A DNA stretch of 32,000 nt, from NCBI RefSeq assembly GCF_000025925.1, contig NC_014033.1, positions 2,130,001 through 2,162,000 on the forward strand. Direction: 5' to 3'. Below, piece by piece: positions 14,240-27,953 of this stretch; the first letter of the stretch is position 1, and every line of letters begins with the position of its first letter. The DNA is from Xylanibacter ruminicola 23. Its GTDB lineage: Bacteria > Bacteroidota > Bacteroidia > Bacteroidales > Bacteroidaceae. Position numbers and translations under genes: made by a program. The notes beneath the pieces were generated by a model. The model was not told where the DNA came from. It did no database searches and saw only the letters and a list, made by a program, of their open reading frames with translations.

Positions 14240-14319
14240 TTATTTTTCTCGAAGTCCGCCAAAGTCCGCCAATGCCATCTTAAAAAGCCGTACCTTCGCA
14301 GTGTCATTCCGGATGGCAC

Positions 14320-14347
14320 TAATGTTTAATCTTTAATGTTTAATCTA
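14320..14347. repeat. Heptamer tandem array, 4 units (TAATGTT TAATCTT TAATGTT TAATCTA), ending 4 nt before the HU-like start codon
   Basis: Read directly. It is the reverse complement of the (C/G)ATTAAA arrays elsewhere in the window. Confidence 0.85.
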
Positions 14348-14351
14348 AATT

Positions 14352-14873
14352 ATGGTACGTTACATTTTGCAGCAAATCAAAATCACCGGCAACAAGTGTT
14401 TTGGTAAGTGGTTCGCCAAGAACGTGGTTGAAGAGACTATCGACCTGGATGCTTTGGCCGAACACATGAGTCATCACAATTCGCCTTACTCGAAGGGCGT
14501 TATCAAGGGTCTGCTCACCGACATGATTGGTTGTATCAAAGAGCTCCTGCTGGAGGGTAAGAACGTGAAGATCGACGACCTGGCCATTTTCTCGCTTGGT
14601 ATCAAGAACAAGGAGATGGCGGAGAAGGAAGAGGACTTCACTGTATCTAAGAACATCAGCGGTGTGAAGTTGAAGGCCCGTGCCACTGGCGACCTGATGA
14701 GTAAGAGTCTTAACCTGGAGGCTACCCTGAAGAAGGCTACCTTTATCAATGGCAAGCTGGCTACTGAGCCAAGTAATGGCGGCGGTGGTAATACCAGTGG
14801 CGGAGGTTCTAATACGCCAAGCGGCGGTGGTAACACCGGTGGTGGCGGTAACCATGAGCCTGTCGGTGACTAA
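14352..14873 (+). CDS. HU-like DNA-binding protein with a glycine-rich tail (HU_HIG type)
   Basis: The N-terminal HU-like fold MVRYILQQIKITGNKCFGKWFAKNV...LLEGKNVKIDDLAIFSLGIK is followed by the tail GGGGNTSGGGSNTPSGGGNTGGGGN. Confidence 0.75.
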   Translation: MVRYILQQIKITGNKCFGKWFAKNVVEETIDLDALAEHMSHHNSPYSKGVIKGLLTDMIGCIKELLLEGKNVKIDDLAIFSLGIKNKEMAEKEEDFTVSKNISGVKLKARATGDLMSKSLNLEATLKKATFINGKLATEPSNGGGGNTSGGGSNTPSGGGNTGGGGNHEPVGD

Positions 14874-14878
14874 ATTTT

Positions 14879-14936
14879 AGGCACGGGCTACACGGATTAA
14901 CACGGATTAATTTCCTATAGTCCTGTAGTCCGTTGC
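14879..14936. repeat. CACGGATTA tandem motif plus TAGTCCTGTAGTCCGTTGC (dispersed family, terminator-like position)
   Basis: AGGCACGGGCTACACGGATTAACACGGATTAATTTCCTATAGTCCTGTAGTCCGTTGC. Related copies lie at 24969-25028 and 29832-29860. Confidence 0.7.
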
Positions 14937-14973
14937 TAAAAACTAACTCTTAACCCTTAAAATTGTATTCTAT

Positions 14974-15078
14974 ATGGTGAAAGTAAACTGGACCAAAGTT
15001 GCTAAGGTCCTTAAATTTGTCGCAACAGTTATTACCTCAGTTCTCGGATCCATAGCCGTACAGTCATGCGCTCAGTAA
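14974..15078 (+). CDS. 34-aa small membrane peptide (smalltalk-like / holin-like position)
   Basis: It falls below the ORF-track size cut-off. ATG at 14974 and TAA at 15076 give MVKVNWTKVAKVLKFVATVITSVLGSIAVQSCAQ. The peptide overlaps the amidase start (15066) by 13 nt in another frame. Confidence 0.5.
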   Translation: MVKVNWTKVAKVLKFVATVITSVLGSIAVQSCAQ

Positions 15079-15512
15079 ACTTGATTGTTATTCACTGCAG
15101 CGCTACCCGCTGCAACAGGCGTTTCACTGTCGATATGCTCAAGGCTTGTCATAATGCCCGGTTCGGCAACAAGGGTATTGGTTACCACTATTACATTGAG
15201 CGTGATGGGCATCTGTATCAGACGCGTGATGAAAGCCTTGTGGGCATGCATGCCAGGCATTACAATGCGCACTCGATTGGCATCTGCTATGAAGGGGGCC
15301 TTAACGAGCGTGGCCAGGCTGCTGATACTCGTACGCCGGAACAGCGTGCAGCGTTAATTGCCTTATTGAGGAGCCTCAAGGAGGATTATCCTCAGGCCGA
15401 GATTCTGGGCCATCGGGAACTCGAAGGGGTTCACAAAGAGTGTCCATCTTTTGATTGTCAGGAGTACCGAGATTACTTCTCGGGCTCTTCTGTCAGAGGG
15501 ACAGCCTCTTGA
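15066..15512 (+). CDS. N-acetylmuramoyl-L-alanine amidase (Amidase_2/PGRP, AmpD-like)
   Basis: IVIHCSAT, GYHYYIERDG and GHRELEGVHKECPSF zinc-ligand blocks. The last ~8 codons are encoded by a REP-like repeat. Confidence 0.85.
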   Translation: MRSVNLIVIHCSATRCNRRFTVDMLKACHNARFGNKGIGYHYYIERDGHLYQTRDESLVGMHARHYNAHSIGICYEGGLNERGQAADTRTPEQRAALIALLRSLKEDYPQAEILGHRELEGVHKECPSFDCQEYRDYFSGSSVRGTAS

Positions 15513-15557
15513 CATCTTCAGGGATTTGTTTCTGACACAGGGACAGGTCCCTGACAC
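15490..15557. repeat. REP-like palindrome pair (GGGACAGG family)
   Basis: CTGTCAGAGGGACAGCCTCTTGACAT (15490-15515, degenerate) and CTGACACAGGGACAGGTCCCTGACAC (15532-15557). Confidence 0.75.
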
Positions 15558-15610
15558 CTTATTAATAAATATAGAAGGTTTTCAACACCTTCAAGTTTCC
15601 CTGATTGTCC

Positions 15611-15900
15611 TTTTCTCTGGCGCAGAGAAAAGAACTAAAAGAGACATTCACCCTTCCAAGGCCTCCCCTCAAGGGGAGGATGCAAAGTCAGGATTTGGGA
15701 AAACCGCAAATCCCTCCTACCTTTTTGGCAGGCCGGGACTTCGGCCTATATTGTTTATAGCTGCTCTATGAGCAGCGGCCCAAAGGGCCTACCCTAATAC
15801 CATGCTAAAACACCGAGGGGTTATGCCGCGCGGCTGGGGGCGAGCAGCCACCCAAAGAGCGAGGGTGGGTGGAGCGAGCTTTATGCGAGCGGGGGGATAA
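15611..15900. repeat. Mosaic hairpin-module repeat, copy B1 (full length)
   Basis: The core at 15691-15820 is nearly identical to 25888-26015. The 5' part matches 16093-16239 and the 3' part matches 27827-27929. Confidence 0.85.
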
Positions 15901-16092
15901 CCCTATTTTACTACTTGTGCAATCTCTTTCTTGAAGAGATCACGAGCATTGTGATGCACATTACCTAGATAAAATTCATCGAAAGCTCGCTTCAAACTTT
16001 CCTTTACCATCTCCTGTTGAGACAGCACGTTTCTATTCTTCATCGATTGAGCGATATTTGATATTTGCAAGTTTTTATCTTTTATTCGTTCA

Positions 16093-16239
16093 TTTCTTCT
16101 GACATCAGAAGAAAAAGAACCAAAGAAGACTGCTACCCCCAAGGCCCCCTTCAAAGGGGGATGCAAAGTCAGGATTTGGGAAAACCGCAAATCCCTCCTA
16201 CCTTTTTGGCAGGCCGGGACGACGGCCTATATTGTTTAT
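16093..16239. repeat. Mosaic hairpin-module repeat, copy B2 (5' half only)
   Basis: ...GATGCAAAGTCAGGATTTGGGAAAACCGCAAATCCCTCCTACCTTTTTGGCAGGCCGGGAC..CGGCCTATATTGTTTAT is shared with B1. Confidence 0.85.
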
Positions 16240-16244
16240 TGGGG

Positions 16245-16418
16245 CTAGCCTATGGTATAGACGAAGATGACAGCGAGGGCCATGAGGAGGGCGATGATGA
16301 TCAGGGTGATCTTTAGAACCTTCTCGATGACTTTTTTGCGCTGGATGTTGGCGAGGCTGCGCTGTTTGAACAGGCTGGAGCCGTCCTTTTTATGATGGGA
16401 ATGGTGATGCTCAGACAT
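16245..16418 (-). CDS. Possible 57-aa small membrane protein
   Basis: It falls below the ORF-track cut-off. Translation: MSEHHHSHHKKDGSSLFKQRSLANIQRKKVIEKVLKITLIIIALLMALAVIFVYTIG. It has one C-terminal TM helix, and its start codon abuts a heptamer array. Confidence 0.35.
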   Translation of the reverse strand: MSEHHHSHHKKDGSSLFKQRSLANIQRKKVIEKVLKITLIIIALLMALAVIFVYTIG

Positions 16419-16454
16419 TAAAGATTAAACATTAAACATTAAACATTAAACATT
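16419..16454. repeat. Heptamer tandem array, about 5 units of (C/G)ATTAAA
   Basis: TAAAGATTAAACATTAAACATTAAACATTAAACATT lies immediately upstream of the 16418 ATG (minus strand). Confidence 0.85.
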
Positions 16455-16530
16455 CTTGCGACCCTTCTTGCGTCCCTTCGGTAGCAAGCGACCAGAGGTC
16501 GAGCGCGGTGGCAAGCGATCAAAGATCGAG
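16455..16530. repeat. Hairpin module adjoining a heptamer array (copy 1)
   Basis: CTTGCGACCCTTC(TTGCGTCCCTTC)GGTAGCAAGCGACCAGAGGTCGAGCG.... The homologous copy is at 23500-23540. Confidence 0.7.
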
Positions 16531-16534
16531 TTCT

Positions 16535-17335
16535 TTACTTCAGGATATTGTAGAGTAACGAGGTGAGGGAGATGAGGATGCTGGTGGCGGAGAACCAGAG
16601 GGTGGTGGTTTGACCTACCTTTGAGTTCTGGGCCTTGACATTGTTGGGCTCTACATACACCACGTCGTTCTGCTGCAGATAATAATAAGGTGAGTTAACG
16701 ATGTTGGCATCGTTGAGGTTCAACGTTACAATCTGCTTTTTACCTGTGGCGTCCTCACGAATAAGCTTTACCTTATCGCGCACACCATAGATAGTAAGGT
16801 CGCCAGCCTGGGCCAAAGCCTCGAGGATGGTAATCTTCTCACGTGATACCTGGAAGCTACCGGGACGAGCTACCTCGCCTAATACTGATACCGAATAACT
16901 CGACATGCGTACGGTAACAATAGGATTCTCGGTCTCGGCCATATAAGGACGAATCTTCTCGGCAATCATCTTCTCGCACTCCGACTTGGTAAGTCCACCT
17001 ACCTTCAGGCGACCAATAATGGGATAATTGATATAGCCCTCGTTATCTACCAGATATGGCATCAGGGTACCACCACCACTTGCCATGGTACGGCCCTGCG
17101 AGTACTCGTTCTGTAACAGCAGATTGAAAGGTATCGAAGCCTCGGAGGTAGTGGTATTTACCGATATGGTAAGCTGATCCTTTGGCATGATGCGAGCATC
17201 ATACAGGAAACGTGAATTATCGAAGTTAATACTGTCGCTGTTCTGCAAATAAGCAACATTTTTCACTGTTCCACAAGAACTGAGCAGCAAAGCTGCTGAC
17301 AAAATTAAAAAATTTAAGAATTGAAATTTTTTCAT
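16535..17335 (-). CDS. wza: Wza-like outer-membrane polysaccharide export lipoprotein (Poly_export + SLBB)
   Basis: Lipoprotein signal LILSAALLLSSCG, the DQLTISV export motif and C-terminal SLBB-like repeats; 266 aa. Confidence 0.85.
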   Translation of the reverse strand: MKKFQFLNFLILSAALLLSSCGTVKNVAYLQNSDSINFDNSRFLYDARIMPKDQLTISVNTTTSEASIPFNLLLQNEYSQGRTMASGGGTLMPYLVDNEGYINYPIIGRLKVGGLTKSECEKMIAEKIRPYMAETENPIVTVRMSSYSVSVLGEVARPGSFQVSREKITILEALAQAGDLTIYGVRDKVKLIREDATGKKQIVTLNLNDANIVNSPYYYLQQNDVVYVEPNNVKAQNSKVGQTTTLWFSATSILISLTSLLYNILK

Positions 17336-17341
17336 TTTGTT

Positions 17342-17378
17342 ACATTAAACATTAAAGATTAAACATGAAACATTAAAA
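17342..17378. repeat. Heptamer tandem array, about 5 units, filling the spacer between the HAD-like stop and the wza start
   Basis: ACATTAAACATTAAAGATTAAACATGAAACATTAAAA. The HAD-like gene's stop codon (17373-17375) lies inside the array. Confidence 0.85.
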
Positions 17379-17807
17379 CTGCCACCAGTGCTTCTTTTTT
17401 GGGGGAAGGGAGTGGTGGATGGAAGATTGTGAAACCAACTCATCGACTACATCGTTCCAGGTGTGGCGATGCTTAATCATACGATAGATGGTGCCCCAGT
17501 CGGGGAGGCCACCTAAGTTGCGATCGTCGATAAAAACGTCGACTTTGAGTTTGCGCGAGAAATGGGGATTATTATCGGTGGTTTCTTCGGGGTAGTCGCG
17601 ATTAACGGCATAGAACTCGAGGCCACGCTGGCGACAATATTCTACTGCCTCATCGAGCAAATGACCCTCACGAACCGACCACAGAATGATACGATGACCA
17701 TCCTGGCGCAACATTTTCAGGGTATCGATGGCGAAAGGAATCTCCTCGCCTATCTCAGGGTACTTATGGGTTACAATTGTACCGTCGAAATCAACTGCGA
17801 TTAGCAT
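17373..17807 (-). CDS. HAD-superfamily (DxDxT) phosphatase-like protein
   Basis: MLIAVDFDGTIV nucleophile motif and the later FIDDRN acidic motif; 144 aa. Confidence 0.6.
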   Translation of the reverse strand: MLIAVDFDGTIVTHKYPEIGEEIPFAIDTLKMLRQDGHRIILWSVREGHLLDEAVEYCRQRGLEFYAVNRDYPEETTDNNPHFSRKLKVDVFIDDRNLGGLPDWGTIYRMIKHRHTWNDVVDELVSQSSIHHSLPPKKKHWWQF

Positions 17808-17808
17808 A

Positions 17809-17885
17809 CATTAAACATTAAACATGAAACATTAAACATTAAAGATTAAACATTAAAGATTAAACATTAAAGATTAAACATTATT
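17809..17885. repeat. Heptamer tandem array with 10 full units plus a partial one; the largest copy
   Basis: CATTAAA x2, CATGAAA, CATTAAA x2, then (GATTAAA CATTAAA) x2, GATTAAA, CATTATT. The array spans exactly from the wzc stop (17881-83, inside the last unit) to 1 nt from the HAD-like ATG (17807). Confidence 0.9.
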
Positions 17886-20418
17886 GTTTAATTGAATCGT
17901 CGTTCTTATTAGAATAATGAGATTCGGCGTAGTTGCCGTATGAGCCGTAGTTGCCGTAACCGTAGTTACCGTACTTGCCGTAGCCATAGCGACCGTAACC
18001 GTAGCGGCCGTACTTACCGTACTTGCCATAGCCATAGTAGTAGCCGTACTTCTTCTTCGACATATCCACACCATTCAGAATCACACAGGTGTTGGTGAGT
18101 TTCTCTTCGGCTACCAAGGTATTCAGCAAACCGATATTGCTCTTCGGGGTGTAGTCGGCACGGCAAACATAACAGTTCACATTACTGTAACGGGCAACCT
18201 GCAGGGTATCGGAAACCAAACCAACTGGAGCGGTATCCATAATCACATAGTCGTACTGCTGTTTGAGCAGCTCGATGATGTCGTGCATATTCTGACGGGC
18301 CAACAGCTCGGTGGGGTTTGGAGGTGTAGGACCAGCCAGGAGCAGATCGAGGTTCTCGTTAACACCTGATGGGCAGATGGTACTGCGCAGATCGGCGAGC
18401 GTAACGGCATCCTTAACCAGCAGCTGACTGACACCAACGGTACGGTCCTTTACACCGAACAGGCGGCCCAGGGCTGGCTTACGGATATCGAGACCGCAAA
18501 GCACTACCTTTTTACCCAGCAGGGCGAACGATACCGCCAGGTTGGCAGCGAGGAAGGTTTTACCCTCACCTGATGTGCTGGAGGTGAAGAGAATCACCTG
18601 ATCGTTCTCCTTCATCATAAACTGGATATTGGTACGCATCGAGCGGAATATCTCGTCAATCTGATTGTTCTTATTGGCCTGTACCACAATGCCGGCAGCG
18701 GTCTTTACCGAGTCGCTGGCCACGGGCACATCGGCTACGATAGGCAGCTTAGTGAGGCGTGCAAGTTCGTCGTGACCCTCGATACGGAAGCTGAGCAGCT
18801 GGATGAGGTAGAGCACAACGAAAGGTACACCCATACCGGCTACCAGGGCAGCAAGCAGGATGATGGCCTTTTTAGGACTAACCTGACCCTCGGACAGAGG
18901 CTCATCGATGAGTTTTCCCTTATCGGCAGTGGCTGCCAGTGAGATAGAGTTCTCCTCGCGCTTCTGCAACAGCAACAGATACAGGCCTGATTTTACCTCC
19001 TGCTGGCGACCAATCTGGGTAAGTACACGCTCCTGTTCGGGGGTATTACCGATACGACCCTCGTACTTGGCCAACTGGCGCTGCAGACTTTGGCGCTGGA
19101 TATCAACCGAGCGGCGTGCCTGCAACAGGGCAGTACGGATAGAGGTCTGGAGATCGTCGAGTGTAGCTGTGAGTGTCTGTACCTGGGGTGCCTGTTCGCT
19201 AACGGTTTTGAGCAAGCGGTTACGCTCCTGTACAGCCTGGTTGAACGAGGCAATCAGCGAGGTAGAGGCATTATCCTGCATACCTACGTTTGAGGGGATA
19301 ATCTTATACTGATTAGCGGGATTATCGACATACTCGCGCAGGTAGTCCATCAGGTGCAGCTGGGCATTGGCCTCGGTAAGCTTGGCCTCGTACTGCGAGC
19401 TCTGATTCAGACTCTGGGTGGCATCCATATTCAGCTGGGTTACCGCATTGCGCTTCTTATAGTTCTCGAGGGCACTCTCGGTGGTACCCAGTTCGGCATC
19501 AATCTTCTGCAAACGGGCATTGATAAACTCCTCGGTCTTCATCGCAATCTCGTTCTTATCCACATTGGCCTGGCGGTTATAGCACACTGCCAACTGGCGC
19601 AGGTAGGCCAAACCACGACGGGTATTCTGATCGGTGAGTGTGAGCTCGGCAATCGAGGTGAGCTTTGAGGTGGGTGCCACAGTGATGGCCTTGGCATAGC
19701 CGGTGGCTACAACCATCGGGGGCAGGATATTTACCACATAGCGGTCGCCATTCTCCATAGGCTCTTTACCGCTCTGGGTAAAGGCCAACACACCATAGTC
19801 GGTACGGAGGGTGGCAGGCAGCTTGGCAAACTGCTGTGAGAATTTGCCTGTAGGTTTGCCCTGATAGAAGGTTCCACCCTGCACCTCGTAGCCATCATCA
19901 TGACGAGTGATGGAGAGCTGGATGGATTTGGCACCTTCGAGCAGGCCCTTATCCCACTGTGCCAGCGACACAGAATCGATATCAACACTCACGGGCTGGG
20001 TGTTGTAAACCAGCACCTTTGAGAGATGGCCGGCCTTGTAATACTGGGTATAGAGCTTGAGATCCATCACGGCATCGCGAGCCAATACACGCGACTGGAG
20101 AATCTCAACCTCGTTCTCGATACCAGCCGAATTACTCATAAATCCGAAGTCCTGCATGTTGGCCAGCATCTGGTTGGCCGAACTGCGGCGACGACTATCA
20201 TCGTCCTTAATCAGCATCTTGGCCGATACCTGGTAGTTCTTGGTGGCATAGCGCAGGTAGATGAGTGCGCCGCACACGCAGATGAACATTGACAGCAGGA
20301 ACCACTGCCAGTTGAGCACCAGCATCGCAAAAAGGTTCTGGAAAGAAAACATAGACTGTTCGTCCTGAAGATCGGTCAAATCCTGACCTTCGTCGATCAA
20401 TTTTGATTCGTCAATCAT
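17881..20418 (-). CDS. wzc: Wzc-type polysaccharide co-polymerase / BY-tyrosine autokinase
   Basis: Wzz/GumC-like N-terminal region with two TM helices; Walker A SSTSGEGKT, Walker A' VVLCGLDIRKP and Walker B YVIMDTAPV; C-terminal Tyr cluster. Confidence 0.9.
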   Translation of the reverse strand: MIDESKLIDEGQDLTDLQDEQSMFSFQNLFAMLVLNWQWFLLSMFICVCGALIYLRYATKNYQVSAKMLIKDDDSRRRSSANQMLANMQDFGFMSNSAGIENEVEILQSRVLARDAVMDLKLYTQYYKAGHLSKVLVYNTQPVSVDIDSVSLAQWDKGLLEGAKSIQLSITRHDDGYEVQGGTFYQGKPTGKFSQQFAKLPATLRTDYGVLAFTQSGKEPMENGDRYVVNILPPMVVATGYAKAITVAPTSKLTSIAELTLTDQNTRRGLAYLRQLAVCYNRQANVDKNEIAMKTEEFINARLQKIDAELGTTESALENYKKRNAVTQLNMDATQSLNQSSQYEAKLTEANAQLHLMDYLREYVDNPANQYKIIPSNVGMQDNASTSLIASFNQAVQERNRLLKTVSEQAPQVQTLTATLDDLQTSIRTALLQARRSVDIQRQSLQRQLAKYEGRIGNTPEQERVLTQIGRQQEVKSGLYLLLLQKREENSISLAATADKGKLIDEPLSEGQVSPKKAIILLAALVAGMGVPFVVLYLIQLLSFRIEGHDELARLTKLPIVADVPVASDSVKTAAGIVVQANKNNQIDEIFRSMRTNIQFMMKENDQVILFTSSTSGEGKTFLAANLAVSFALLGKKVVLCGLDIRKPALGRLFGVKDRTVGVSQLLVKDAVTLADLRSTICPSGVNENLDLLLAGPTPPNPTELLARQNMHDIIELLKQQYDYVIMDTAPVGLVSDTLQVARYSNVNCYVCRADYTPKSNIGLLNTLVAEEKLTNTCVILNGVDMSKKKYGYYYGYGKYGKYGRYGYGRYGYGKYGNYGYGNYGSYGNYAESHYSNKNDDSIKQ

Positions 20419-20452
20419 ATTTTGCTGTTCTAAATTATATTATGCTATTGTT

Positions 20453-21352
20453 TTAAAATGTGATATTCTCGTCGGGAAGCCAGTCGGTATTGAGCAGGAA
20501 CGAGAAGTTGGAGGTTCCTGGTGTGAACACCGCACCGGTGGCCTTGGTGATTTGATTACGCTTGAAATGTACCTTAGGTAACGTTTTACTGATGAGTACC
20601 GACTGGTTGGCATCGAGCGCCTCGATGGTTACCGGCATGGTTTCTTCGTTAGCACTCAGGAACACAATGCTGTACACAAAGATGGTGCCATCATCGTCAT
20701 CGGGTACTACCCTATTGGTGACCGAAAAGCCTTTATCGTCGGTGGCCAGTCCGGTGGTAGGATTGAAGCTCTTGCTGCCTGCGCCGTAGGTGGTGCGAAG
20801 GGTGGTGGCAGCTGATGGTGCCTGATCGGTTGAAAGCAACTGGAACTGTGCCATCACACGATTCATCACCGGACTGATATCCACTGGTGCCGTGCCAGTT
20901 ACCGTGATGCTCTGTGTGCAGCAGAATGTTTCGCGTGCACGTTCGCTGGTATAGGCAGCCTGCGTAGGACTGGTTATGGTGAACTCGTCGCCTTTACTTC
21001 TGCTGCGCGCCACGACTACCATGGTGTAGGTGCCTATGGGCAGACTGCACTCAAACTCGCCAAAGGTGGTGTAGGTGGTAGCATCGTCCTTTATCTGAGT
21101 GGCGGCATACACCTGCTTGTTGCCGGCGGCAAAGATGGCGATATCGATAGCCTTAACCGCCGTGTAGTTGTTTGGATCGTCGCCAGCACGCGTTTGGGCA
21201 TCAGGAAAATTCTCGTTGGAGAATGAGAAATCACTTACATGTACACGCACTGGGGTTTTCACCTCGTCTTGGTTGTTCTCTTCTGCAGCCTTCTGGCTAC
21301 AACTTTGAGCCAACAGGATTATTCCTGCCAGCATGATTGATTTAATTCTCAT
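20453..21352 (-). CDS. Lipoprotein, FimB/Mfa2-like fold suspected; paralog of the next gene
   Basis: Signal GIILLAQSC. It shares blocks with 21381..22256 (GTYTMVVVARS vs GTYQVVVVGHS; C-terminal LNTDWLPDENITF vs INAEWEGEQTIEF). Confidence 0.55.
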   Translation of the reverse strand: MRIKSIMLAGIILLAQSCSQKAAEENNQDEVKTPVRVHVSDFSFSNENFPDAQTRAGDDPNNYTAVKAIDIAIFAAGNKQVYAATQIKDDATTYTTFGEFECSLPIGTYTMVVVARSRSKGDEFTITSPTQAAYTSERARETFCCTQSITVTGTAPVDISPVMNRVMAQFQLLSTDQAPSAATTLRTTYGAGSKSFNPTTGLATDDKGFSVTNRVVPDDDDGTIFVYSIVFLSANEETMPVTIEALDANQSVLISKTLPKVHFKRNQITKATGAVFTPGTSNFSFLLNTDWLPDENITF

Positions 21353-21380
21353 TTTTTAAGTTATAGGTTTATTTATAACG

Positions 21381-22256
21381 TTATTGAAATTCTATGGTCT
21401 GCTCACCTTCCCACTCGGCATTGATACCGATGATGATGGTGATGGTTGAGCCATCGGAGCCCGAGAAATACGGACCTGTGAGTTTGGTAATCATGCGCTG
21501 CTTGAGCGGCACATCAAACTCGCGATCTTTCACGATGGTCTCGTTGTCGTTGTAGGCTGTAACCTGCAGATGCAGCGTACCCTCGGTGTCGTGAAGAAAG
21601 GTGTACAGATCAAAACTGCATGACTGTTGACCTGGTTCGACTGCGAAGGTCTCCTTCTGGGTGCTGTTAACAGAGCCTAAGCCTGTAGCAGCATCAAATG
21701 CACCCGAGCCACCTTTATACTGGAACCGCATCTGCGTGACTCCCTCGGGGATGGCATCGGTAAACACTACCCGGCAGAGCGACACGATACGGTGCAAATC
21801 GGCATCGATAGTGGTTTCCTTGTCGTCGGTTACCTGGATAATGGCATTATGCAGAAAGGTGTCGGAATAGCCATCCTTGTTGTCAAACCGAATCTTCTGA
21901 GGATTGGTCATGGTGGGATTGCCACTACTGCTGTGACCCACTACCACTACCTGATAGGTACCTGGATCTATCCGGAAGGCTACCGTGCCATAACTGGCAT
22001 CGCCTGTTTTTTGGTTGACTTGCTTAATGAGCTTGCCCGCCGTATCGTAGACAGCGAAATTGAGTCGCTGACAGTAGTCGGTAATAGATGTGCGCGTGAA
22101 TGGTGTTGCAAACGACTGTTGCTCGATCTGGAATACTGATACTACCAGATTGCCATCGGCGTCGCCACCTATAACGTCTTGTTCAGGGATGAGCGGATGC
22201 TCGCAAGATGTAATGATTAATAAGATAAGGTAAAATGGAAGAATTAATCGCCTCAT
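21381..22256 (-). CDS. Lipoprotein, FimB/Mfa2-like fold suspected; first gene of the export operon
   Basis: Signal LILLIITSC. It is paralogous to 20453..21352. Confidence 0.55.
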   Translation of the reverse strand: MRRLILPFYLILLIITSCEHPLIPEQDVIGGDADGNLVVSVFQIEQQSFATPFTRTSITDYCQRLNFAVYDTAGKLIKQVNQKTGDASYGTVAFRIDPGTYQVVVVGHSSSGNPTMTNPQKIRFDNKDGYSDTFLHNAIIQVTDDKETTIDADLHRIVSLCRVVFTDAIPEGVTQMRFQYKGGSGAFDAATGLGSVNSTQKETFAVEPGQQSCSFDLYTFLHDTEGTLHLQVTAYNDNETIVKDREFDVPLKQRMITKLTGPYFSGSDGSTITIIIGINAEWEGEQTIEFQ

Positions 22257-22395
22257 TTTTTGATATCTAGTGAATCTCCTCCTTCCGTGCTGACTAGCAT
22301 AATATGTTTAAAGTCAGTACGTTATCAAATATTTAAGTTTTCTTAATACTATGGTTTTCGGGATAGAATTGAAATCGATTTCCCTTTTCCGCGGA

Positions 22396-22403
22396 CAAAG
22401 GTA
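22396..22403 (-). promoter_or_regulatory. Candidate Bacteroidetes -7 box (TACCTTTG on the minus strand) for the lipoprotein-wzc-wza operon
   Basis: Plus-strand CAAAGGTA matches TAnnTTTG exactly, about 140 nt upstream of the 22256 start. Confidence 0.4.
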
Positions 22404-22568
22404 AGCCAAATTTGCGAGATGACCAAATAAAAATGCAAAAAAAGACAATTATTGCGTGATTTCTTCGGCTATTTCGTTTTTTTATGCTATCTTTGACTCA
22501 AGAATGAGTCGAAGGTACTCCCGTTCGAAAAAAACCAAATAAAATTTGTTTTTCTGCTCACTTATTCG

Positions 22569-22576
22569 TACCTTTG
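22569..22576 (+). promoter_or_regulatory. Candidate -7 box TACCTTTG for the UpxY-like gene
   Basis: Exact TAnnTTTG match 20 nt before the ATG at 22596. It sits in the loop of the inverted repeat CTTATTCG...CGAAATAAG. A second match, TATCTTTG, lies at 22488-22495. Confidence 0.45.
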
Positions 22577-22595
22577 CACACGAAATAAGATTAAG

Positions 22596-23561
22596 ATGGC
22601 AGAAACTGATAATAATGTAGAAAAATGGTATGTGCTGGGATGCTTGAGTGTACACCACGAAGAGAAAGTGAGGGATGCACTGAGAAAGGCAGGATTCCGC
22701 AGTCACGTACCTATGAAATATGAGGTAAAAACCGTGCGCCGCCAGGAGCAGCGTACGATGGTGCCTGCCATCACGGGATTGATTTTTGTGCGTGCTACCG
22801 AGGAGGCGCTGAAGGAGTATATCCGACATAAGTCGCGCGAAAGCATCTACATGCGCAAATCAACCTTCTCGAACAAGCAGGACTATCTGACGGTGCCTGA
22901 TTATGCCATGGAGCGATTCATCGAATTCACCAATATCCGACAGGAAAAGATTACCTACTTTAAGCCCGAGGAGCTGAACCTGAAAGAGGGCGAGAAGATT
23001 CGTATCAAAGGTGGTATCTATGATGGTTACGAGGGAACCATCCTGCGCTTTAAAGGTAAGCGCAACAAGCACCTGGTGGTACAGATACCGGGGGTGATTA
23101 TCGCCGCCGTAGAGTTGGAGCCCGAACTGGTGGAGCCCCTGAACAACCCGATAGAACGAGAGATTAGGGAGCGCCCATCGAAAGATGTGGATGGGGATAA
23201 GAAATACCTGTTGGAGCTGGCCGAGTGGCTGTTGGAGAACCAGGCGGATAAGGATGTGCCCAAGATGGAGTTCAACTTGAAACTGTATGAGTTGAAGCGC
23301 ACCCGCGCGCGCCTGCTGAAGTTTAAAGGCTTTACCCCAACCACCGAAGCAGAGCTGGCCCTGCCGATGTATCTTGCAGCGCTTATCCTCGAAGAGGATG
23401 TAGAGGCCTATCGCCAGCGCCTTGAAAAGGCCACAGAGCGCCTGAAGGACACCAGCAAGCTGAAAGCGCGCTGCCAGAAGGCGATGGAGATTAAACATTC
23501 TTGCGACCCTTCGGTAGCAAGCGAGCATAGCTCGAGCGAAAGATTAAACATTAAAGATTAA
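22596..23561 (+). CDS. UpxY-family (NusG-like) transcription antiterminator with an extra C-terminal extension of about 135 aa
   Basis: NGN domain KWYVLGCLSVHHEEKVRDALRKAGF and KOW motif GEKIRIKGGIYDGYEGTILRFKG. The length is 321 aa, versus about 170-180 aa as I recall for typical UpxY proteins. Confidence 0.75.
   Translation: MAETDNNVEKWYVLGCLSVHHEEKVRDALRKAGFRSHVPMKYEVKTVRRQEQRTMVPAITGLIFVRATEEALKEYIRHKSRESIYMRKSTFSNKQDYLTVPDYAMERFIEFTNIRQEKITYFKPEELNLKEGEKIRIKGGIYDGYEGTILRFKGKRNKHLVVQIPGVIIAAVELEPELVEPLNNPIEREIRERPSKDVDGDKKYLLELAEWLLENQADKDVPKMEFNLKLYELKRTRARLLKFKGFTPTTEAELALPMYLAALILEEDVEAYRQRLEKATERLKDTSKLKARCQKAMEIKHSCDPSVASEHSSSERLNIKD
23500..23540. repeat. Hairpin module adjoining a heptamer array (copy 2), inside the 3' end of the UpxY-like ORF
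   Basis: CTTGCGACCCTTCGGTAGCAAGCGAGCATAGCTCGAGCGAA. The stem CGAGC/GCTCG here corresponds to CGACC/GGTCG in copy 1. Confidence 0.7.
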
Positions 23562-23590
23562 AGATTAAACATTAAAGATTAAACATTATA
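23542..23590. repeat. Heptamer tandem array, about 6.5 units
   Basis: GATTAAA CATTAAA GATTAAA GATTAAA CATTAAA GATTAAA CATTATA. It contains the UpxY-like stop codon (23559-61) and ends 20 nt before the pgi ATG. Confidence 0.9.
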
Positions 23591-23610: not shown

Positions 23611-24960
23611 ATGGAAATGATTAAGCTTGACATTACGAAGGCTGCATGCTTTTTGAAGGAAGGTGCAGTGGAGAGTTTTGAACCAAAGGTAGCTGAGGCA
23701 CAGAAGGCTCTTGAGGCTGGTACCTGTCCTGGCAACGACTTCCTGGGTTGGTTGCACCTGCCCAGCAGCATTACACCAGCATTCCTGGATGAGTTGCAGG
23801 CTTGCGCTGACACCCTGCGCGCTAACTGCGACGCTATCGTAGTAGCCGGTATCGGTGGTTCGTACCTGGGTGCACGTGCTGTGATCGAGGCCCTGAGCAA
23901 CGCATTCAGCTGGTTGGTTAACGATCCTAAGAACCCCACCATCCTGTTCGCAGGTAACAACATCGGTGAGGACTATCTGTTCGAACTCACAGAGTACCTG
24001 AAGGGTAAGAAGTTTGGTGTGATCAACATCTCGAAGAGTGGTACTACCACCGAGACTGCCCTCACCTTCCGTCTGCTGAAGAAGCAGTGCGAGGCCCAGC
24101 GTGGTAAGGAAGAGGCTAAGAAGGTGATCGTAGCCGTTACCGACGCCAAGAAGGGTGCTGCCCGTACCTGCGCCGACAAGGAGGGTTACAAGAGCTTTAT
24201 CATCCCCGATAACGTTGGTGGTCGCTTCTCAGTACTCACTCCAGTAGGATTGCTGCCTATCGCCTGCGCTGGTTTCAGCATCAAGGATCTGGTGGCTGGT
24301 GCCCAGGAGATGGAGAAGGCTTGCGCCCCAACCGTACCATTTGCCGAGAACCCCGCAGCCCAGTATGCTGCCGTACGTAACGGTTTGTACCAGAGCGGTA
24401 AGAAGATTGAGATTATGGTGAACTTCCAGCCTAAGCTGCACTTCTTCTCTGAGTGGTGGAAGCAGCTCTACGGCGAGAGCGAGGGTAAGGACGGTAAGGG
24501 TATCTTCCCTGCCAGCGTTGACTTCACTACCGACCTGCACTCGATGGGTCAGTGGATTCAGGAAGGTGAGCGCACTATCTTCGAGACTGTTATCTCTGTA
24601 GAGGAGCCCGAGAAGAAGCTGCTGTTCCCCAACGACGAGGAGAACCTGGACGGCCTGAACTTCCTGGCTGGCAAGCGTGTGGATGAGGTGAACAAGATGG
24701 CTGAGCTGGGTACACAGCTGGCTCACGTGGATGGTGGTGTGCCCAACATGCGCATCAGCGTTCCTAAGTTGAACGAGTACTACATCGGACAACTCATCTA
24801 CTTCTTCGAGATTGCCTGTGGTATCAGTGGTAATGTACTGGGTGTTAACCCATTCAACCAGCCTGGTGTAGAGGCTTACAAGAAGAACATGTTTGCCCTG
24901 CTGGATAAGCCTGGCTACGAGGCAGAGAGCGCCGCAATCAAAGCCAGACTCGCAAAATAA
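23611..24960 (+). CDS. pgi: Glucose-6-phosphate isomerase
   Basis: [18 protein letters not shown] and [19 protein letters not shown] motifs; 449 aa. Confidence 0.95.
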
Positions 24961-25041: not shown

Positions 25042-25734
25042 ATGATTAGAGCAGTATTATTTGACATGGATGGCGTATTGTATGATTCGATGAAGAATCA
25101 CGCAGTGGCCTGGGTCCAGTCGATGAAGAAGTTCGGAATCAATATGACAGCCGATGATGCCTACGCCACTGAGGGAGCTCGTGGCGTAGACACCATTCGC
25201 TATATGGTAAAGCAACAGCAAGGTCGCGAGATTACCGAGGCAGAATCGCAGCTGATGTACGATGAGAAGACACGTATCTTTCACTCGATGCCAGAGGCGC
25301 CGATCATGCCGGGGATTTTATCGCTCATGGAGCAGATACATGCAGCTGGTATTACCATTGGCATCGTAACAGGCTCTGGACAGCGCCCCTTGATTAATCG
25401 CATCCTGCGTGATTTTGGCAAATACGTTACCATCGATAACATCACCACAGCCTACGATGTAAAACGAGGCAAGCCCAATCCCGATCCCTATCTCATGGGA
25501 TTGCAAAAGGCAGGCAATCTGCAACCGAGCGAAGCGATGGTAGTAGAAAACGCCCCCTTAGGTGTCCGCGCTGGTGTAGCTGCCGGTATTTACACCATCG
25601 CCGTCAACACCGGTCCCCTTCCCGATCAAGTCCTCCTTGATTCAGGCGCCAACATCCTTTTTCCTACTATGCAAGCCTTAAGCGATTCTTGGAAGGATCT
25701 TCCCCCTGTCAAGGGACAGGTCCCTGTCATCTAA
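25042..25734 (+). CDS. HAD-family phosphatase (beta-phosphoglucomutase/sugar-phosphatase-like)
   Basis: LFDMDGVLYDS, VTGSG, KRGKPNPDPY and VENAPLGVRAG motifs. The last ~9 codons (PPVKGQVPVI) are encoded by a REP-like repeat. Confidence 0.8.
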   Translation: MIRAVLFDMDGVLYDSMKNHAVAWVQSMKKFGINMTADDAYATEGARGVDTIRYMVKQQQGREITEAESQLMYDEKTRIFHSMPEAPIMPGILSLMEQIHAAGITIGIVTGSGQRPLINRILRDFGKYVTIDNITTAYDVKRGKPNPDPYLMGLQKAGNLQPSEAMVVENAPLGVRAGVAAGIYTIAVNTGPLPDQVLLDSGANILFPTMQALSDSWKDLPPVKGQVPVI

Positions 25735-25761
25735 CCCTGCCAGGGGACAGGTACCTGACAT
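25706..25761. repeat. REP-like palindrome pair upstream of the RAYT gene
   Basis: CTGTCAAGGGACAGGTCCCTGTCAT (25706-30) and CTGCCAGGGGACAGGTACCTGACAT (25737-61). Confidence 0.8.
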
Positions 25762-25887
25762 CTGCTGCCCTCCAACCTTTCCCCAAAATTCCCTTTTTCA
25801 CAACCACCCAACCCTCCTTCATCCTAAGGAGGGCTTCAAACCACTCTCCAAACCCCTCGCCAATCTTTGGCAAGGGGCTTAAATTCT

Positions 25888-26015
25888 GGATTTGGGAAAA
25901 CCCAAATCCATCCTATGTTTTGGCAGGCCGGGACTTCGGCCTATATTGCTTATGGCTGCTCCTTGAGCAGCGGCCCATAGGGCCTTTATCTAATACCATG
26001 CTAAAACACCGAGGG
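25888..26015. repeat. Mosaic hairpin-module repeat, copy B3 (core)
   Basis: GGATTTGGGAAAACCCAAATCC...GGCAGGCCGGGACTTCGGCCTATATTGCTTATGGCTGCTCCTTGAGCAGCGGCCCATAGGGCC...TAATACCATGCTAAAACACCGAGGG is nearly identical to 15691-15820. Confidence 0.85.
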
Positions 26016-26097
26016 TATTTGGGGCGAGCAGCCCCTAATATATAAAGAAAATGTGCACTTTTTCTGGAAAAATGATGAGATTGTTTGGGATTTTTAT

Positions 26098-26105
26098 TAT
26101 TTTTG
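26098..26105 (+). promoter_or_regulatory. Candidate -7 box TATTTTTG for the RAYT gene
   Basis: Exact TAnnTTTG match about 44 nt upstream of the ATG at 26149. Confidence 0.4.
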
Positions 26106-26148
26106 CAGCGCAAATAAAGAGCTAAGTTTAAATCATAAAACAGAAAAT

Positions 26149-26940: not shown

Positions 26941-26942
26941 CC

Positions 26943-27000
26943 CATGACAGGGGACAGGTTCCTGACAGTTCTTCCACATGACAGGGGACAGGTACTCCCT
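26943..27000. repeat. REP-like palindrome pair immediately downstream of the RAYT stop
   Basis: CATGACAGGGGACAGGTTCCTGACAG (26943-68) and CATGACAGGGGACAGGTACTCCCT (26977-27000). Confidence 0.8.
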
Positions 27001-27826: not shown

Positions 27827-27953
27827 TAATACCTGAAAACACCGAGGGGGATGCCGCGCGGCTGGGGGCGGGCTGCCACCAAAGAGCGAGGGTGGGTGGA
27901 GCGAGCGTCCAGCAAGCGAGGGAATCGGATGACAGGGACCTGTCCCCTGGCAG
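27827..27953. repeat. Mosaic repeat copy B4 (3' half) fused to an inverted REP-like palindrome
   Basis: TAATACCTGAAAACACCGAGGGGGATGCCGCGCGGCTGGGGGCGGGCTGCCACCAAAGAGCGAGGGTGGGTGGAGCGAGC matches 15797-15868. It is followed by ATGACAGGGACCTGTCCCCTGGCAG (27929-53). Confidence 0.85.

Follow-up and report, generated by a model that had tools for sequence, protein, structure and literature searches.

Enterobacteria have BIME/REP elements, intergenic mosaics within operons that are built of small GC-rich palindromes with other short motifs between them. Heterocystous cyanobacteria carry the STRR (short tandemly repeated repetitive) heptamers, reportedly the subject of Mazel et al. 1990. Among long simple-sequence repeats (SSRs), heptanucleotides are the most abundant class in many bacteria, and polymerase slippage has been proposed for them in the literature; those of Calothrix PCC 7601 are mentioned in PMC4692102, and the GGGAATC repeats of Xanthomonas and GGGGA(C/T)T repeats of Nostoc vary much in length and sequence among close relatives (Rehm et al. 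2015, PMC4692102). In Haemophilus influenzae, an (ATCTTTC)n repeat in the 5'-UTR of hmw1A and hmw2A sets the level of the HMW1A adhesin (PMC12721329). Marine Beggiatoaceae, cyanobacteria, and five Bacteroidetes carry TAACTGA repeats just a few nt before start codons—sister strains differ by 7-nt indels, and the downstream genes show no functional pattern (PMC4679880).

Here we analyze a 32,000-nt stretch of the Xylanibacter ruminicola 23 genome (the window) that contains five arrays of the unit SATTAAA/TTTAATS. We consider it probable that these are hypermutable intergenic heptanucleotide SSRs of the STRR or TAACTGA-repeat kind, belonging to a rumen Prevotellaceae clade in which 7-nt arrays of many unit types occupy the junctions of neighboring, mostly co-directional genes. 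The five (C/G)ATTAAA arrays reported by an earlier sequence-only reading were recovered at the same sites by Tandem Repeats Finder, as period-7 arrays, and by double-unit matches; with at most one mismatch, the double unit SATTAAASATTAAA gave 25 matches, every one within the five arrays, compared with 0.12 expected from shuffles, and 30 of the 45 single units in the window fall inside them. Their occurrence is far beyond chance. Nor are they an assembly artefact, since they recur in two isolate assemblies (GCA_019973335.1 and GCA_900108375.1) and several metagenome contigs. The unit is 86% A+T, RNA folding predicts no stable structure for the arrays, and they match no Rfam family. Coordinates are given in Table 1.

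Table 1. Arrays, hairpin modules, and associated genes in the window (strand in brackets; TRF, Tandem Repeats Finder).
Feature	Coordinates	TRF boundary	Make-up	Neighboring features
Hairpin	14300..14320 (+)		9-bp, GC-containing, AGTGTCATTCCGGATGGCACT	Directly 5' of array 1
Array 1	14320..14345 (+)	End 14346	TAATG + TTTAATC TTTAATG TTTAATC; TTTAATS sense on + strand	HU-HIG gene ATG (14352) 6 nt downstream
Array 2	16416..16454 (-)	Start 16415	5.5 units; TTTAATS on minus strand	ATG of 57-aa His-rich ORF (16416-16418, minus strand) inside last unit
GC-rich core	16455..16534 (-)		Short hairpin modules	Occupies remainder of wza-to-57-aa spacer
Operon segment	16535..20418 (-)		wzc 17881-20418; 144-aa gene 17373-17807; wza 16535-17335	Hosts arrays 2-4
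Array 3	17343..17377 (-)	Start 17342	5 units, one being TTTCATG	TAA of 144-aa gene (17373-17375) in first unit (mRNA sense); 7 nt to wza ATG (17333-17335)
Array 4	17809..17883 (-)	Start 17808	10 full units + partial unit	wzc TAA (17881-17883) within last, partial/degenerate unit; 1 nt to ATG of 144-aa gene (17805-17807)
Partial array	23489..23499 (+)		1.5 units, GATTAAACATT	Left flank of second core copy, within UpxY-like ORF
Second core copy	23500..23541 (+)		90% identical over 41 nt to 16465-16505
Array 5	23542..23590 (+)	23539-23588	7 units; SATTAAA in sense of both flanking genes	NusG/UpxY-like gene TAA (23559-23561) inside; pgi ATG (23611) 20 nt past end
Y1 gene	26053-26940		IS200-like Y1 transposase

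The arrays abut start and stop codons, with the array filling the whole spacer. As the earlier reading had it, each lies 0-20 nt from a start codon and three of the five supply the stop codon of a gene (wzc, the 144-aa gene, and the NusG/UpxY-like gene); TTTAATG units also provide ATG. An open reading frame (ORF) that enters an array closes within three units because the TTAA core gives TAA in three frames on both strands. The earlier description of all arrays as intergenic holds except for array 5: it and its GC-rich core are not purely intergenic, since the final 25 codons of the UpxY-like ORF run through them—the second core copy is translated as part of this protein's C-terminal tail. The label "HAD-like" for the 144-aa gene is unconfirmed, as a Pfam search of that gene gave no match.

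The sequence-only reading had proposed comparing copy number across strains, and the comparison is strongly positive, with length polymorphism at the junctions. The compared strains encode an identical 144-aa or Wza protein, and the flanking coding sequences of array-bearing strains are 95-98% DNA-identical to the window; some of the copy numbers derive from short-read metagenome assemblies, in which every array is shorter than a read. The wzc/144-aa junction is found as TAATG with no array, as TTTAATS in 3 or 10 copies, as TTCACTN in 4 or 7 copies, and as AATGTTC in 4 copies. Between the 144-aa gene and wza, strains with identical Wza have 4, 5, or 8 TTTAATS units or are array-free. The wza/57-aa junction holds 4-5 TTTAATS units next to a core that is either small or large, an array with a duplicated core, TTCACTR in 21 copies, a TCAATG-type unit in 3-4 copies, or TAATG; in strain L064 the site orthologous to array 2 is a bare TAATG stop/start overlap. 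The TTCACTN arrays do not resemble the sequences on either side of them. In distant relatives stop and start overlap or nearly overlap at these junctions, and the arrays are therefore derived.

The earlier reading had also offered slipped-strand tuning of capsule export. Its slippage component is supported because array length differs across strains. Extended to phase variation, the proposal would have array slippage tune or switch the export genes wza and wzc, as contingency repeats do; there is a precedent in a 5'-UTR heptamer SSR whose longer repeats lower expression (PMC12721329), strains do differ in copy number, and all five arrays cluster in 9.3 kb around wzc, wza, and the UpxY-like regulator gene, the other 23 kb of the window having none. 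We nevertheless judge this very improbable. Frameshifts are impossible with arrays outside reading frames, a long hairpin of the hmw type is not predicted, and the capsule link fails in other genomes: arrays are not specific to capsule genes. Among the matches listed, array neighbors are housekeeping genes, which belong to 127 different Pfam families, and surface-structure families are not enriched among the 92 ORFs flanking Prevotellaceae arrays. Tuning of capsule export is not supported, because other Prevotellaceae arrays flank hisG/hisD, pta/ackA, purH, mreB, RNase HII, and genes of a like kind.

TTTAATS matches in species genomes included 51 Prevotellaceae loci among the at least 120 matches listed, and the following counts refer to these. 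Any ORF with an ATG start and a length of 80 aa or more was taken as a flanking gene, with no gene finder. ORFs on both sides were found at 27 of the 51 loci, co-directional in 24 of the 27; 12 arrays adjoin a gene end only, and 7 lack a neighboring ORF of that length. The next ATG follows at a median of 6 nt (41 cases). Both orientations are present. The sequence-only reading correctly gave four window arrays as TTTAATS in the sense of the downstream gene and array 5 as SATTAAA, but this polarity is not a general rule; co-directional junctions read SATTAAA in mRNA sense 17 times and TTTAATS 7 times. Array composition shows no strand bias relative to the downstream gene.

Period 7 is also prominent where loci were chosen without regard to repeats. 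Across 80 wza loci it was the commonest period not divisible by three, with 42 arrays compared with 16 of period 8 and 1-3 each of periods 5, 10, and 11. Array density was 11.5 per 10 kb in the closest relatives, where period 7 dominates the tandem repeats, and 0.66 and 0.34 in more distant ones—a clade enrichment of 20-30-fold. Many other heptamer families act like TTTAATS, without any common module.

These data bear on whether the arrays are functional translation leaders. They could be binding platforms in operon mRNAs for a single-stranded-RNA-binding OB-fold protein, ribosomal protein S1 or a cold-shock protein at about one per 7 nt, or A/U-rich standby sites whose lack of structure drives Shine-Dalgarno-independent initiation of the downstream cistron. 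The short distance to the next ATG, both in the window and in the 41 listed cases, the predicted absence of structure, the operon-internal position of 24 of 27 listed two-sided arrays, and the excess of the A-rich SATTAAA sense (no AUG) over the AUG-laden sense at the listed co-directional junctions are consistent with such a role. For TAACTGA repeats, S1, Csp, and CsrA have been suggested in the same way, and CspB binds heptamer repeats at one protein per heptamer (PMC4679880). We still regard translation leaders as unlikely; arrays occur in both orientations without compositional strand bias, unrelated heptamers swap at one junction, strains with the same proteins have array-free TAATG-overlap alleles, and some listed arrays adjoin only a gene end or no ORF. 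The unstructured A/U-rich landing pad suggested by the earlier reading is compatible with the predicted folding, but predicted accessibility does not improve with arrays: the pairing probability around the start codon is 0.41-0.62 for alleles with or without them. A sequence-specific protein with 7-bp register, another earlier suggestion, is unlikely as a general explanation because unrelated heptamers share the junction in sister strains and there is no strand bias.

A subset of the arrays is joined to GC-rich modules. The core beside array 2 consists of two copies of TTCTTGCGNCCC and two modules of about 27 nt with 5-bp stems (CGACC/GGTCG and CGATC/GATCG); in other strains it is missing, smaller, or in tandem duplicate, as in L277, where the core-plus-array unit is duplicated. 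A different hairpin module, TTCGCTTCGCTCAGAAR, is dispersed alongside TTTAATS arrays in other rumen genomes, with 5 copies within 3 kb in L082, 4 in tandem in L179, and others in 5 further rumen genomes. As one core occurs at two window loci and TTCGCTTCGCTCAGAAR is dispersed elsewhere, some copy-in process must exist.

Arrays and cores together might thus be a mobile mosaic, a non-autonomous BIME/REPIN-like element that inserts between stop and start and spreads in trans, the IS200-like Y1 transposase of the window being a possible agent, with bare arrays as remnants after core loss. Both window copies of the 41-nt core are embedded in arrays, the L277 duplication and the dispersal of TTCGCTTCGCTCAGAAR fit such copying, and spacers gain arrays unrelated in sequence to their flanks. 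We find this quite unlikely, however: three of the five window arrays have no core (array 1 adjoins another hairpin, arrays 3 and 4 none), the heptamer stretches beside the core are direct rather than inverted repeats, fixed termini or target duplication are not visible, the palindromes on either side of the Y1 gene (GGGACAGGTNCCTG) are its own and unrelated, and the many other heptamer families behave alike without a shared module.

The same hairpins could instead mark transcript ends, if a GC hairpin and the U-rich TTTAATS array after it act between cistrons as an intrinsic terminator, attenuator, or 3'-end stabilizer. The AGTGTCATTCCGGATGGCACT hairpin scores terminator-like with array 1 as its T-rich tail, and RNA folding predicts the same stem; in the TTTAATS orientation, the array 2 cores and the hairpin modules of other genomes likewise sit 5' of the U-rich array. 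This is the most improbable of the alternatives we weighed. Arrays 3 and 4 have no hairpin, most modules have stems of only 5 bp and a UUUAAUG tail with no U run, half of the listed arrays elsewhere are A-rich relative to transcription, and a terminator between wzc and wza would break the export operon.

We therefore return to heptanucleotide SSRs that occupy gene junctions. An array would arise where the spacer was absent or very short, in many cases at a TAATG stop/start overlap; it would then grow, shrink, and change unit quickly by replication slippage in 7-nt steps, with unit sequence turning over as point-mutated units spread. Some arrays may become joined to short GC-rich hairpin modules, and the composites may be copied between sites. 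An overlapping, translationally coupled gene pair would thereby become a spaced pair, and the downstream cistron would gain an AT-rich, structure-free leader. Bacteroidota ribosomes do not depend on Shine-Dalgarno pairing for initiation, so such a leader should be usable, and the arrays, being AT-rich, unstructured, and supplied with TAA in all six frames, would thus be tolerated. Copy number may modulate expression rather than switch it. This reading leaves three points unaccounted for: the start of an array in a spacer of 0-3 nt, for which slippage alone is not enough, the preference for 7 nt, and the enrichment in one clade.

Compared with known systems, the arrays resemble BIME/REP in being strain-variable, intergenic, operon-internal mosaics in a genome with a Y1 (RAYT-type) transposase gene, but they are mainly tandem heptamer, many lack a palindrome, and a Y1 link is not shown. 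With STRRs they share several tandem heptanucleotide families that are dispersed, mostly intergenic, lineage-specific, and strain-variable; STRR units, however, are GC-rich (CCCCAGT and others) and belong to the cyanobacterial phylum, and to our knowledge STRRs have not been reported to fill stop/start junctions or supply stop or start codons as the window arrays do. The Xanthomonas and Nostoc repeats are likewise heptameric intergenic SSRs with lineage over-representation, variation among close relatives, and no tie to pathogenicity genes (PMC4692102), but they are G-rich and G-quadruplex-capable whereas TTTAATS is structure-free. The hmw repeat is also a 7-nt SSR in a 5' leader whose copy number varies among isolates; it acts at one locus, as a contingency switch of a surface adhesin, by way of a long RNase III-cleaved hairpin (PMC12721329), while Prevotellaceae arrays occupy many loci at housekeeping genes and form no long hairpin.

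The sequence-only reading did not recognize a described element. This stands for the unit and lineage, as TTTAATS in a Prevotella-type lineage seems to be unreported in the literature searched, but the kind—intergenic heptamer direct repeats beside start codons—is already described (PMC4679880, PMC4692102). The TAACTGA repeats (MacGregor 2015, PMC4679880) and the window arrays have in common a tandem 7-nt, stop-containing unit at many intergenic sites, a position a few nt before a start codon with no Shine-Dalgarno motif, downstream genes without pattern, sister-strain indels in 7-nt steps, and relatives with the same flanking genes and no repeats. They differ in unit and in host, here rumen Prevotellaceae; in Beggiatoaceae one heptamer is dominant and points to the start codon, whereas TTTAATS arrays run in both orientations, many heptamer families substitute for one another at a single junction, and some Prevotellaceae arrays carry GC hairpin modules.

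The five tandem arrays of the 7-nt unit SATTAAA (TTTAATS on the other strand, S being C or G) are numbered here 1 to 5 by position. Tandem Repeats Finder recovers all of them as head-to-tail units in 3.9–10.9 copies with 85–93% matches, and the double unit SATTAAASATTAAA, at one mismatch or fewer, matches 25 times in the window—always inside an array (25/25), against 0.12 matches expected from dinucleotide-preserving shuffles. Hence the five arrays exist as they had been read from the sequence alone. Single units are less confined, with 30 of 45 inside arrays 1–5, and the unit in the window is TTTAATG/TTTAATC, not TAACTGA. The window matches contig BPTT01000001.1 (assembly GCA_019973335.1), and the junction between wza and the small 57-aa ORF is the same in a second isolate assembly, GCA_900108375.1. 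Gene content is of Bacteroidota type (UpxY-like NusG, HU-HIG, Mfa2), and it supports, together with the bovine and rumen metagenome sources and the taxonomy of the scan matches described below, a placement in rumen Prevotellaceae; a gene was taken to be any ORF that starts with ATG and is 80 aa or longer.

Repeat arrays, genes and other features by position in the window
Feature	Positions	Strand	Copies	Basis
Array 1, period 7	14320-14346		3.9	Tandem Repeats Finder
Array 2, period 7	16415-16454		5.7	Tandem Repeats Finder
Array 3, period 7	17342-17377		5.1	Tandem Repeats Finder
Array 4, period 7	17808-17883		10.9	Tandem Repeats Finder
Array 5, period 7	23539-23588		7.1	Tandem Repeats Finder
HU-HIG gene	14352-14873	+		ORF listing, Pfam
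Amidase	15066-15512	+		ORF listing, Pfam
57-aa His-rich ORF	16245-16418	-		ORF listing; no Pfam family
wza (Poly_export/SLBB)	16535-17335	-		ORF listing, Pfam
144-aa gene, no Pfam hit	17373-17807	-		ORF listing, Pfam
wzc (Wzz/GNVR/AAA_31)	17881-20418	-		ORF listing, Pfam
Two Mfa2-like genes	20453-22256	-		ORF listing, Pfam
NusG/UpxY-like gene	22596-23561	+		ORF listing, Pfam
pgi	23611-24960	+		ORF listing, Pfam
Y1 transposase gene, IS200-like (PF01797, 295 aa)	26053-26940	+
CTGCCAGGGGACAGGTNCCTGNCA palindrome copies	25703-25772, 26937-26985, 27918-27960, 29115-29177, 15489-15560, 8774-8799
Dispersed ~100-nt repeats	15665-15765, 16146-16246, 25860-25960
Shared blocks, 37-47 nt	15794-15898 vs 27846-27925 and 25990-26026
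GTAAACTGTCAATTTTGACGTCCTG inverted repeat, 25 nt	828-852 / 986-1010
GTAAACTGTCAATTTTGACGTCCTG third copy	5332-5377
UDP-glucose dehydrogenase gene	6333-7646
AAA_15/AAA_21 (AbiEii-like) ATPase gene	9865-11145
Coding repeats, Wzc tail	17928-18012
Coding repeats, HU-HIG tail	14777-14849

The position of the arrays relative to genes is largely as the sequence-only reading had it: all five lie within 0–20 nt of a start codon, and three hold the TAA that ends the upstream gene. The statement that all are intergenic fails for array 5: the UpxY-like ORF takes its final 25 codons from this array and from the GC-rich core to its left, and passes 1.5 units and the core before it meets an in-frame TAA. A HAD-like assignment of the 144-aa gene was not confirmed, as the Pfam search gave no match. 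The TTAA in the unit places a TAA in each of the three frames, on either strand, once per 21 nt, so any ORF that meets an array closes within three units. TTTAATG units are also a source of ATG, and in several genomes the gene that follows starts at the ATG of the last unit. The 57-aa ORF is such a case, since the allele without an array starts at that very ATG, there part of a TAATG.

The most telling evidence on the arrays comes from three junctions compared between strains—wzc/144-aa, 144-aa/wza and wza/57-aa. Strains are contigs that encode the exact 144-aa protein or the exact Wza protein; in these genes their DNA is 95–98% identical to that of the window, with the exception of wza in L062 and L064 (found through the 144-aa protein), which is only ~89% identical. 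Several of the alleles are read from short-read metagenome contigs. An exact-match look-up of the HU-HIG protein gave no record, and thus the comparison excludes array 1; blastn and tblastn of the window detected no orthologous capsule genes in the genome-scan loci described below, which therefore could not serve for the comparison of alleles.

Alleles at three gene junctions in the window and in contigs of other strains (L-numbers)
Junction	Allele	Carrier
wzc/144-aa	caaTAATGttaatc, stop/start overlap without array	L064, L065, L068
wzc/144-aa	TTTAATS x3	L062
wzc/144-aa	TTTAATS x10	window
wzc/144-aa	TTCACTN x4	L067
wzc/144-aa	TTCACTN x7	L273
wzc/144-aa	AATGTTC-type x4	L271, L277
144-aa/wza	TTTAATS x4, x5 or x8	strains with identical Wza protein
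144-aa/wza	unrelated 17-nt spacer
144-aa/wza	46-nt AT-rich spacer resembling a decayed array
wza/57-aa	TAATG overlap	L064
wza/57-aa	small hairpin + TTTAATS x4	L062
wza/57-aa	large core + TTTAATS x5	window
wza/57-aa	tandem duplication of core-plus-array	L277
wza/57-aa	TTCACTR x21, without core	L273
wza/57-aa	small hairpin + TCAATG-type x3	L271, L279

Comparison of copy number between strains, which the sequence-only reading had proposed, reveals whole-unit steps: 0, 3 or 10 units at wzc/144-aa and 4, 5 or 8 at 144-aa/wza, the latter in strains whose Wza protein is identical and whose CDS identity is 96–98%. Array turnover is far faster than that of the flanking genes. Several units stand one substitution apart (TTTAATG, TTCAATG, TTCACTG, TTCACTA), a series that fits mutation followed by spread within an array. 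In 80 more distant metagenome wza loci the junction of wza with the small ORF is in many cases TAATG, TAAcATG or TAAtATG, and we therefore take overlap to be the older state and the arrays to be derived; others of these loci have the heptamers TCAATTG, TTCACTA or TTTCAAT directly at the junction, and loci in which no small ORF follows have ATAATAG heptamers just downstream of the wza stop. One further contig, L060 (2480-3169 compared with window 16417-16545), is 100% identical through wza, core and array 2, and diverges completely at the final base of the array, with different genes beyond. Recombination at the array may account for this, or else a chimeric join in an assembly of low (2.4x) coverage; L060 was therefore left out as evidence.

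Many rumen Prevotella contigs (L191-L244) conserve the small ORF itself (MSEHHHSHHKKDGSS...) on the downstream side of wza, and CAT/CAC trinucleotide repeats make the length of its His tract variable. Other coding repeats in the window are the in-frame tandem units of 9–24 nt that encode the Tyr/Gly-rich C-terminal tail of Wzc and an in-frame 21-nt unit encoding the Gly-rich tail of the HU-HIG protein.

Outside the window, a scan for (SATTAAA)3 in one genome per species returned at least 120 stretches. By record title, 51 of the 120 matches listed are Prevotella, Prevotellaceae or Xylanibacter, nearly all from rumen or gut, the remainder being 35 other Bacteroidota, 8 cyanobacteria and 26 others. 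The 51 Prevotellaceae loci among these matches hold 59 arrays, 52 of which directly adjoin the boundary of an ORF (minimum 80 aa); the next ATG follows at a median of 6 nt (41 Prevotellaceae cases among the matches listed). Where ORFs lie on both sides (n=27, same matches), 24 pairs are co-directional, 2 divergent and 1 convergent. The shared polarity noted earlier is real in the window, where TTTAATS is the downstream-gene sense of four arrays and SATTAAA that of the array next to pgi, but it does not extend further: co-directional junctions among the matches listed read SATTAAA in mRNA sense in 17 cases and TTTAATS in 7, and the "forward" orientation to the start codon, 4/5 in the window, is 22 vs 26 overall. 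Separately, 58 IMG/VR contigs (L001-L058) have at least four SATTAAA units, and in some of them arrays of 20–28 units stand at a contig end. Giant-virus MAGs make up many of these contigs, whose arrays are probably unrelated AT-rich satellites.

The genes beside the arrays bear on a proposal that slipped-strand contingency repeats tune capsule export. Its slippage part is upheld by the length polymorphism between strains, but its link to capsule genes is not: 92 flanking ORFs with 127 Pfam families, among the matches listed, are not enriched for surface-structure genes. The leading families are HisG, histidinol dehydrogenase, GH97, Dus and PurH, and acetate kinase, Pta and MreB also occur. On this census a capsule-specific element was rejected. 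The phenomenon is confined neither to the TTTAATS unit nor to capsule genes, and it has no single orientation.

In 224 kb of wza loci not chosen for repeats, Tandem Repeats Finder (at least 3 copies) found 42 arrays of period 7, 16 of period 8 and 1–3 each of periods 5, 10 and 11; those of periods 3, 6 and 9 encode His and Tyr-Gly repeats, and period 7 is over-represented among periods not divisible by three. Density reaches 11.5 arrays per 10 kb where Wza is 72–87% identical to that of the window and is 0.66 and 0.34 per 10 kb in more distant wza loci, a 20–30-fold difference between sister clades. Among 68 period-7 arrays that have a gene start at one end but not at the other, no strand bias in base composition relative to that gene was seen, nor a bias to G-poor or pyrimidine-rich leaders in mRNA sense. 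In two rumen contigs, a 19-copy CATCTTC array (L201 1106-1237, L202 759-890) lies over the called start of a wza homologue, hence an over-long ORF call of 294 aa—an example of heptamer arrays distorting start-codon prediction.

Several regulatory or structural readings of the arrays were tried. As RNA they have no stable predicted structure (empty centroid structures, z-scores of -0.07 and +1.63 vs shuffles), and Rfam 15 gave 0 matches in the whole window at the gathering threshold. Improved start-codon accessibility finds no support in predicted pairing: the mean pairing probability from -20 to +10 of the start is 0.41–0.62 with or without arrays. The Bacteroidetes promoter has a -7 box, TAnnTTTG, which neither strand of the unit can form, and a scan for sigma-70-type promoters found no excess (14 found vs 12.7 expected). 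A loose scan for intrinsic terminators matched, among the arrays, only array 1 with the hairpin at 14300-14320 upstream of it, a 9-bp stem different from the core hairpins, which together with the array scored terminator-like; arrays 3 and 4 have no stem. The earlier exclusion of CRISPR stands, as 7-nt units run head to tail with no spacers, vs repeats of ~23–47 nt with unique spacers of similar length.

Arrays 2 and 5 are accompanied by a GC-rich core, TTCTTGCGNCCCTTCGGTAGCAAGCGA...TCGAGCG, whose two copies are 90% identical over 41 nt. The core is predicted to fold into small hairpins with 5-bp stems, and the stems differ among modules by paired changes (CGACC/GGTCG, CGATC/GATCG, CGAGC/GCTCG). 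These hairpins, the presence of the core at two loci and the dispersal of another module in other genomes may recall REP/BIME or REPIN elements, whose dispersed intergenic unit is an imperfect palindrome of ~20–40 nt, but three of the five arrays lack a core and the arrays themselves are non-palindromic. A MITE is rejected because heptamers flank the core in direct orientation and no inverted termini were found. Composites of the form (SATTAAA)n-TTCGCTTCGCTCAGAAR-(SATTAAA)n occur in other rumen genomes; L082 has five of them within 3 kb and L179 four in tandem. In other rumen Prevotella MAGs (L179 1628-1822, L082 3595-6546, L096 36-108) TTTAATS units alternate regularly with the 17-nt module TTCGCTTCGCTCAGAAR, giving higher-order repeats of ~38–45 nt.

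One could go further and regard the TTTAATS arrays and GC hairpin cores as a "translationally self-insulating" mobile mosaic element, set between stop and start by an active clade-specific process and not a product of ordinary slippage. The process could be copy-in driven by a transposase or recombinase, possibly of the Y1 enzyme class, and TAA stops in every frame, as well as an ATG, would arrive with the element. In the TTTAATG/TTTAATS register the units form a chain of four-codon mini-ORFs (ATG TTT AAT STT TAA), each stop overlapping the next ATG, along which ribosomes can, on paper, be handed on to the downstream gene. Such chains are present in arrays 2–4. Traced by hand, the chain runs three steps from the wzc stop; the stop of the 144-aa gene (TAATG) starts the first of two mini-ORFs, a 4-nt gap follows, and the second ends in an ATGA overlap with the wza start; in array 2 it holds for the ATGs at positions 8, 22 and 36. 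A relay that keeps translational coupling is rejected as a general explanation, given that G/C alternation is equal in arrays of opposite orientation and that this orientation (SATTAAA) is commoner at co-directional junctions of the matches listed. We consider the mobile mosaic element very unlikely. If true, it could colonise operons without polar damage, and cistron spacing would be a hypervariable, selectable layer genome-wide.

We favour a reading in which the arrays belong with the intergenic heptanucleotide long simple sequence repeats (LSSRs), the closest described case being the TAACTGA repeats (PMC4679880). The arrays are tandem, dispersed and clade-enriched, and change by whole units between strains that are otherwise almost the same; other heptamers can take their place, and they show no orientation preference and are unstructured as predicted RNA. 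They would grow and shrink by slippage, turning overlapping, coupled cistrons into spaced ones, and may be tolerated because Bacteroidota initiate without depending on Shine-Dalgarno pairing and would be well served by a leader that is rich in A+T and free of structure. Since the arrays fill spacers that were formerly zero to a few nt, and since an ORF that enters one soon meets a TAA, they come to be butted against start and stop codons, and no function need be invoked. Slippage does not explain the birth of an array in a 0–3 nt spacer, the two 41-nt core copies in the window or the TTCGCTTCGCTCAGAAR composites, so some copy-in process (recombination, gene conversion or transposition) acts as well. 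A leader function is a candidate role of the arrays.

Other repeats share the window. The Y1 transposase gene lies among copies of the GC-rich palindrome CTGCCAGGGGACAGGTNCCTGNCA, of which the one at 29115-29177 forms a 31-nt inverted pair that is almost perfect. The arrangement resembles the REP/RAYT type, and the palindromes are a repeat family separate from the heptamers. Each dispersed ~100-nt repeat contains a terminator-like hairpin, AGGCCGGGAC..CGGCCT, followed by ATATTGTTTA; the first two copies are 90% identical, and shorter shared blocks lie nearby. The inverted repeat GTAAACTGTCAATTTTGACGTCCTG is 96% complementary and encloses 133 nt, with its third copy 4.3 kb away, a geometry that recalls the invertible promoter segments of Bacteroidales polysaccharide loci. 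Positions 1-11000 have a G+C of 30–38% vs about 50% in the rest of the window (41–44% around the UDP-glucose dehydrogenase gene) and are probably a horizontally acquired polysaccharide or defence segment, in which the AbiEii-like ATPase gene also lies; they have no heptamer arrays although they are AT-rich.

The value of these arrays lies in the same three junctions being visible in many natural strains of rumen Prevotellaceae with nearly identical flanking genes, in alleles that range from a bare TAATG overlap to 21 units and include several heptamer families. Together with the 20–30-fold gap in density between clades, the allele series is a natural experiment on the birth and turnover of intergenic spacers, on what determines heptamer slippage, and on how operons in a phylum without Shine-Dalgarno reliance tolerate or use changes in cistron spacing—a good system for asking why heptamers, and what they do. 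There are practical consequences as well: arrays extend ORFs (the UpxY-like protein gains a 25-residue tail), can mislead start-codon calling and are likely break points in metagenome assemblies.

Tandem heptanucleotide arrays in bacteria have reportedly been known for decades, the name attached to them being Mazel et al. in 1990. In many bacterial genomes no long SSRs are as abundant as the heptanucleotides, which were found in 2007 to be the most over-represented, and a 7-nt polymerase contact was proposed to favour their slippage (Mrazek 2007, as cited in PMC4679880 and PMC4692102); the class is given there as units of 5–11 nt (Mrazek 2007, as cited in PMC4679880). The arrays here resemble these LSSRs in being tandem, with at least three copies, high identity, whole-unit length change and an excess of period 7. 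The strict STRRs of heterocystous cyanobacteria differ in unit and phylum (8 of the 120 listed scan matches are cyanobacterial), and an hmw1A-type contingency switch fails on its association with surface genes, which the flanking Pfam census of the matches listed does not support. With BIME mosaics the GC-hairpin composites share a resemblance only, as 3/5 arrays lack a core. A search of the accessible literature for heptamer arrays in Prevotella, or for the literal array sequence, found no describing paper. The TAACTGA repeats, which occur in Beggiatoaceae, cyanobacteria and five Bacteroidetes, behave very similarly (PMC4679880). They differ in the unit itself (TAACTGA vs TTTAATS) and in a consistent orientation to the start codon in Beggiatoaceae, whereas there is none here; unit-family turnover at one site is seen here and not reported for them (PMC4679880). 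In both, a 7-nt unit that contains stop codons lies close to start codons (a few nt upstream for TAACTGA, 0–20 nt away here), the downstream genes follow no functional pattern, and sister strains differ by 7-nt indels (PMC4679880). The class is already known, and the arrays of rumen Prevotellaceae are a further case of intergenic heptanucleotide repeats.
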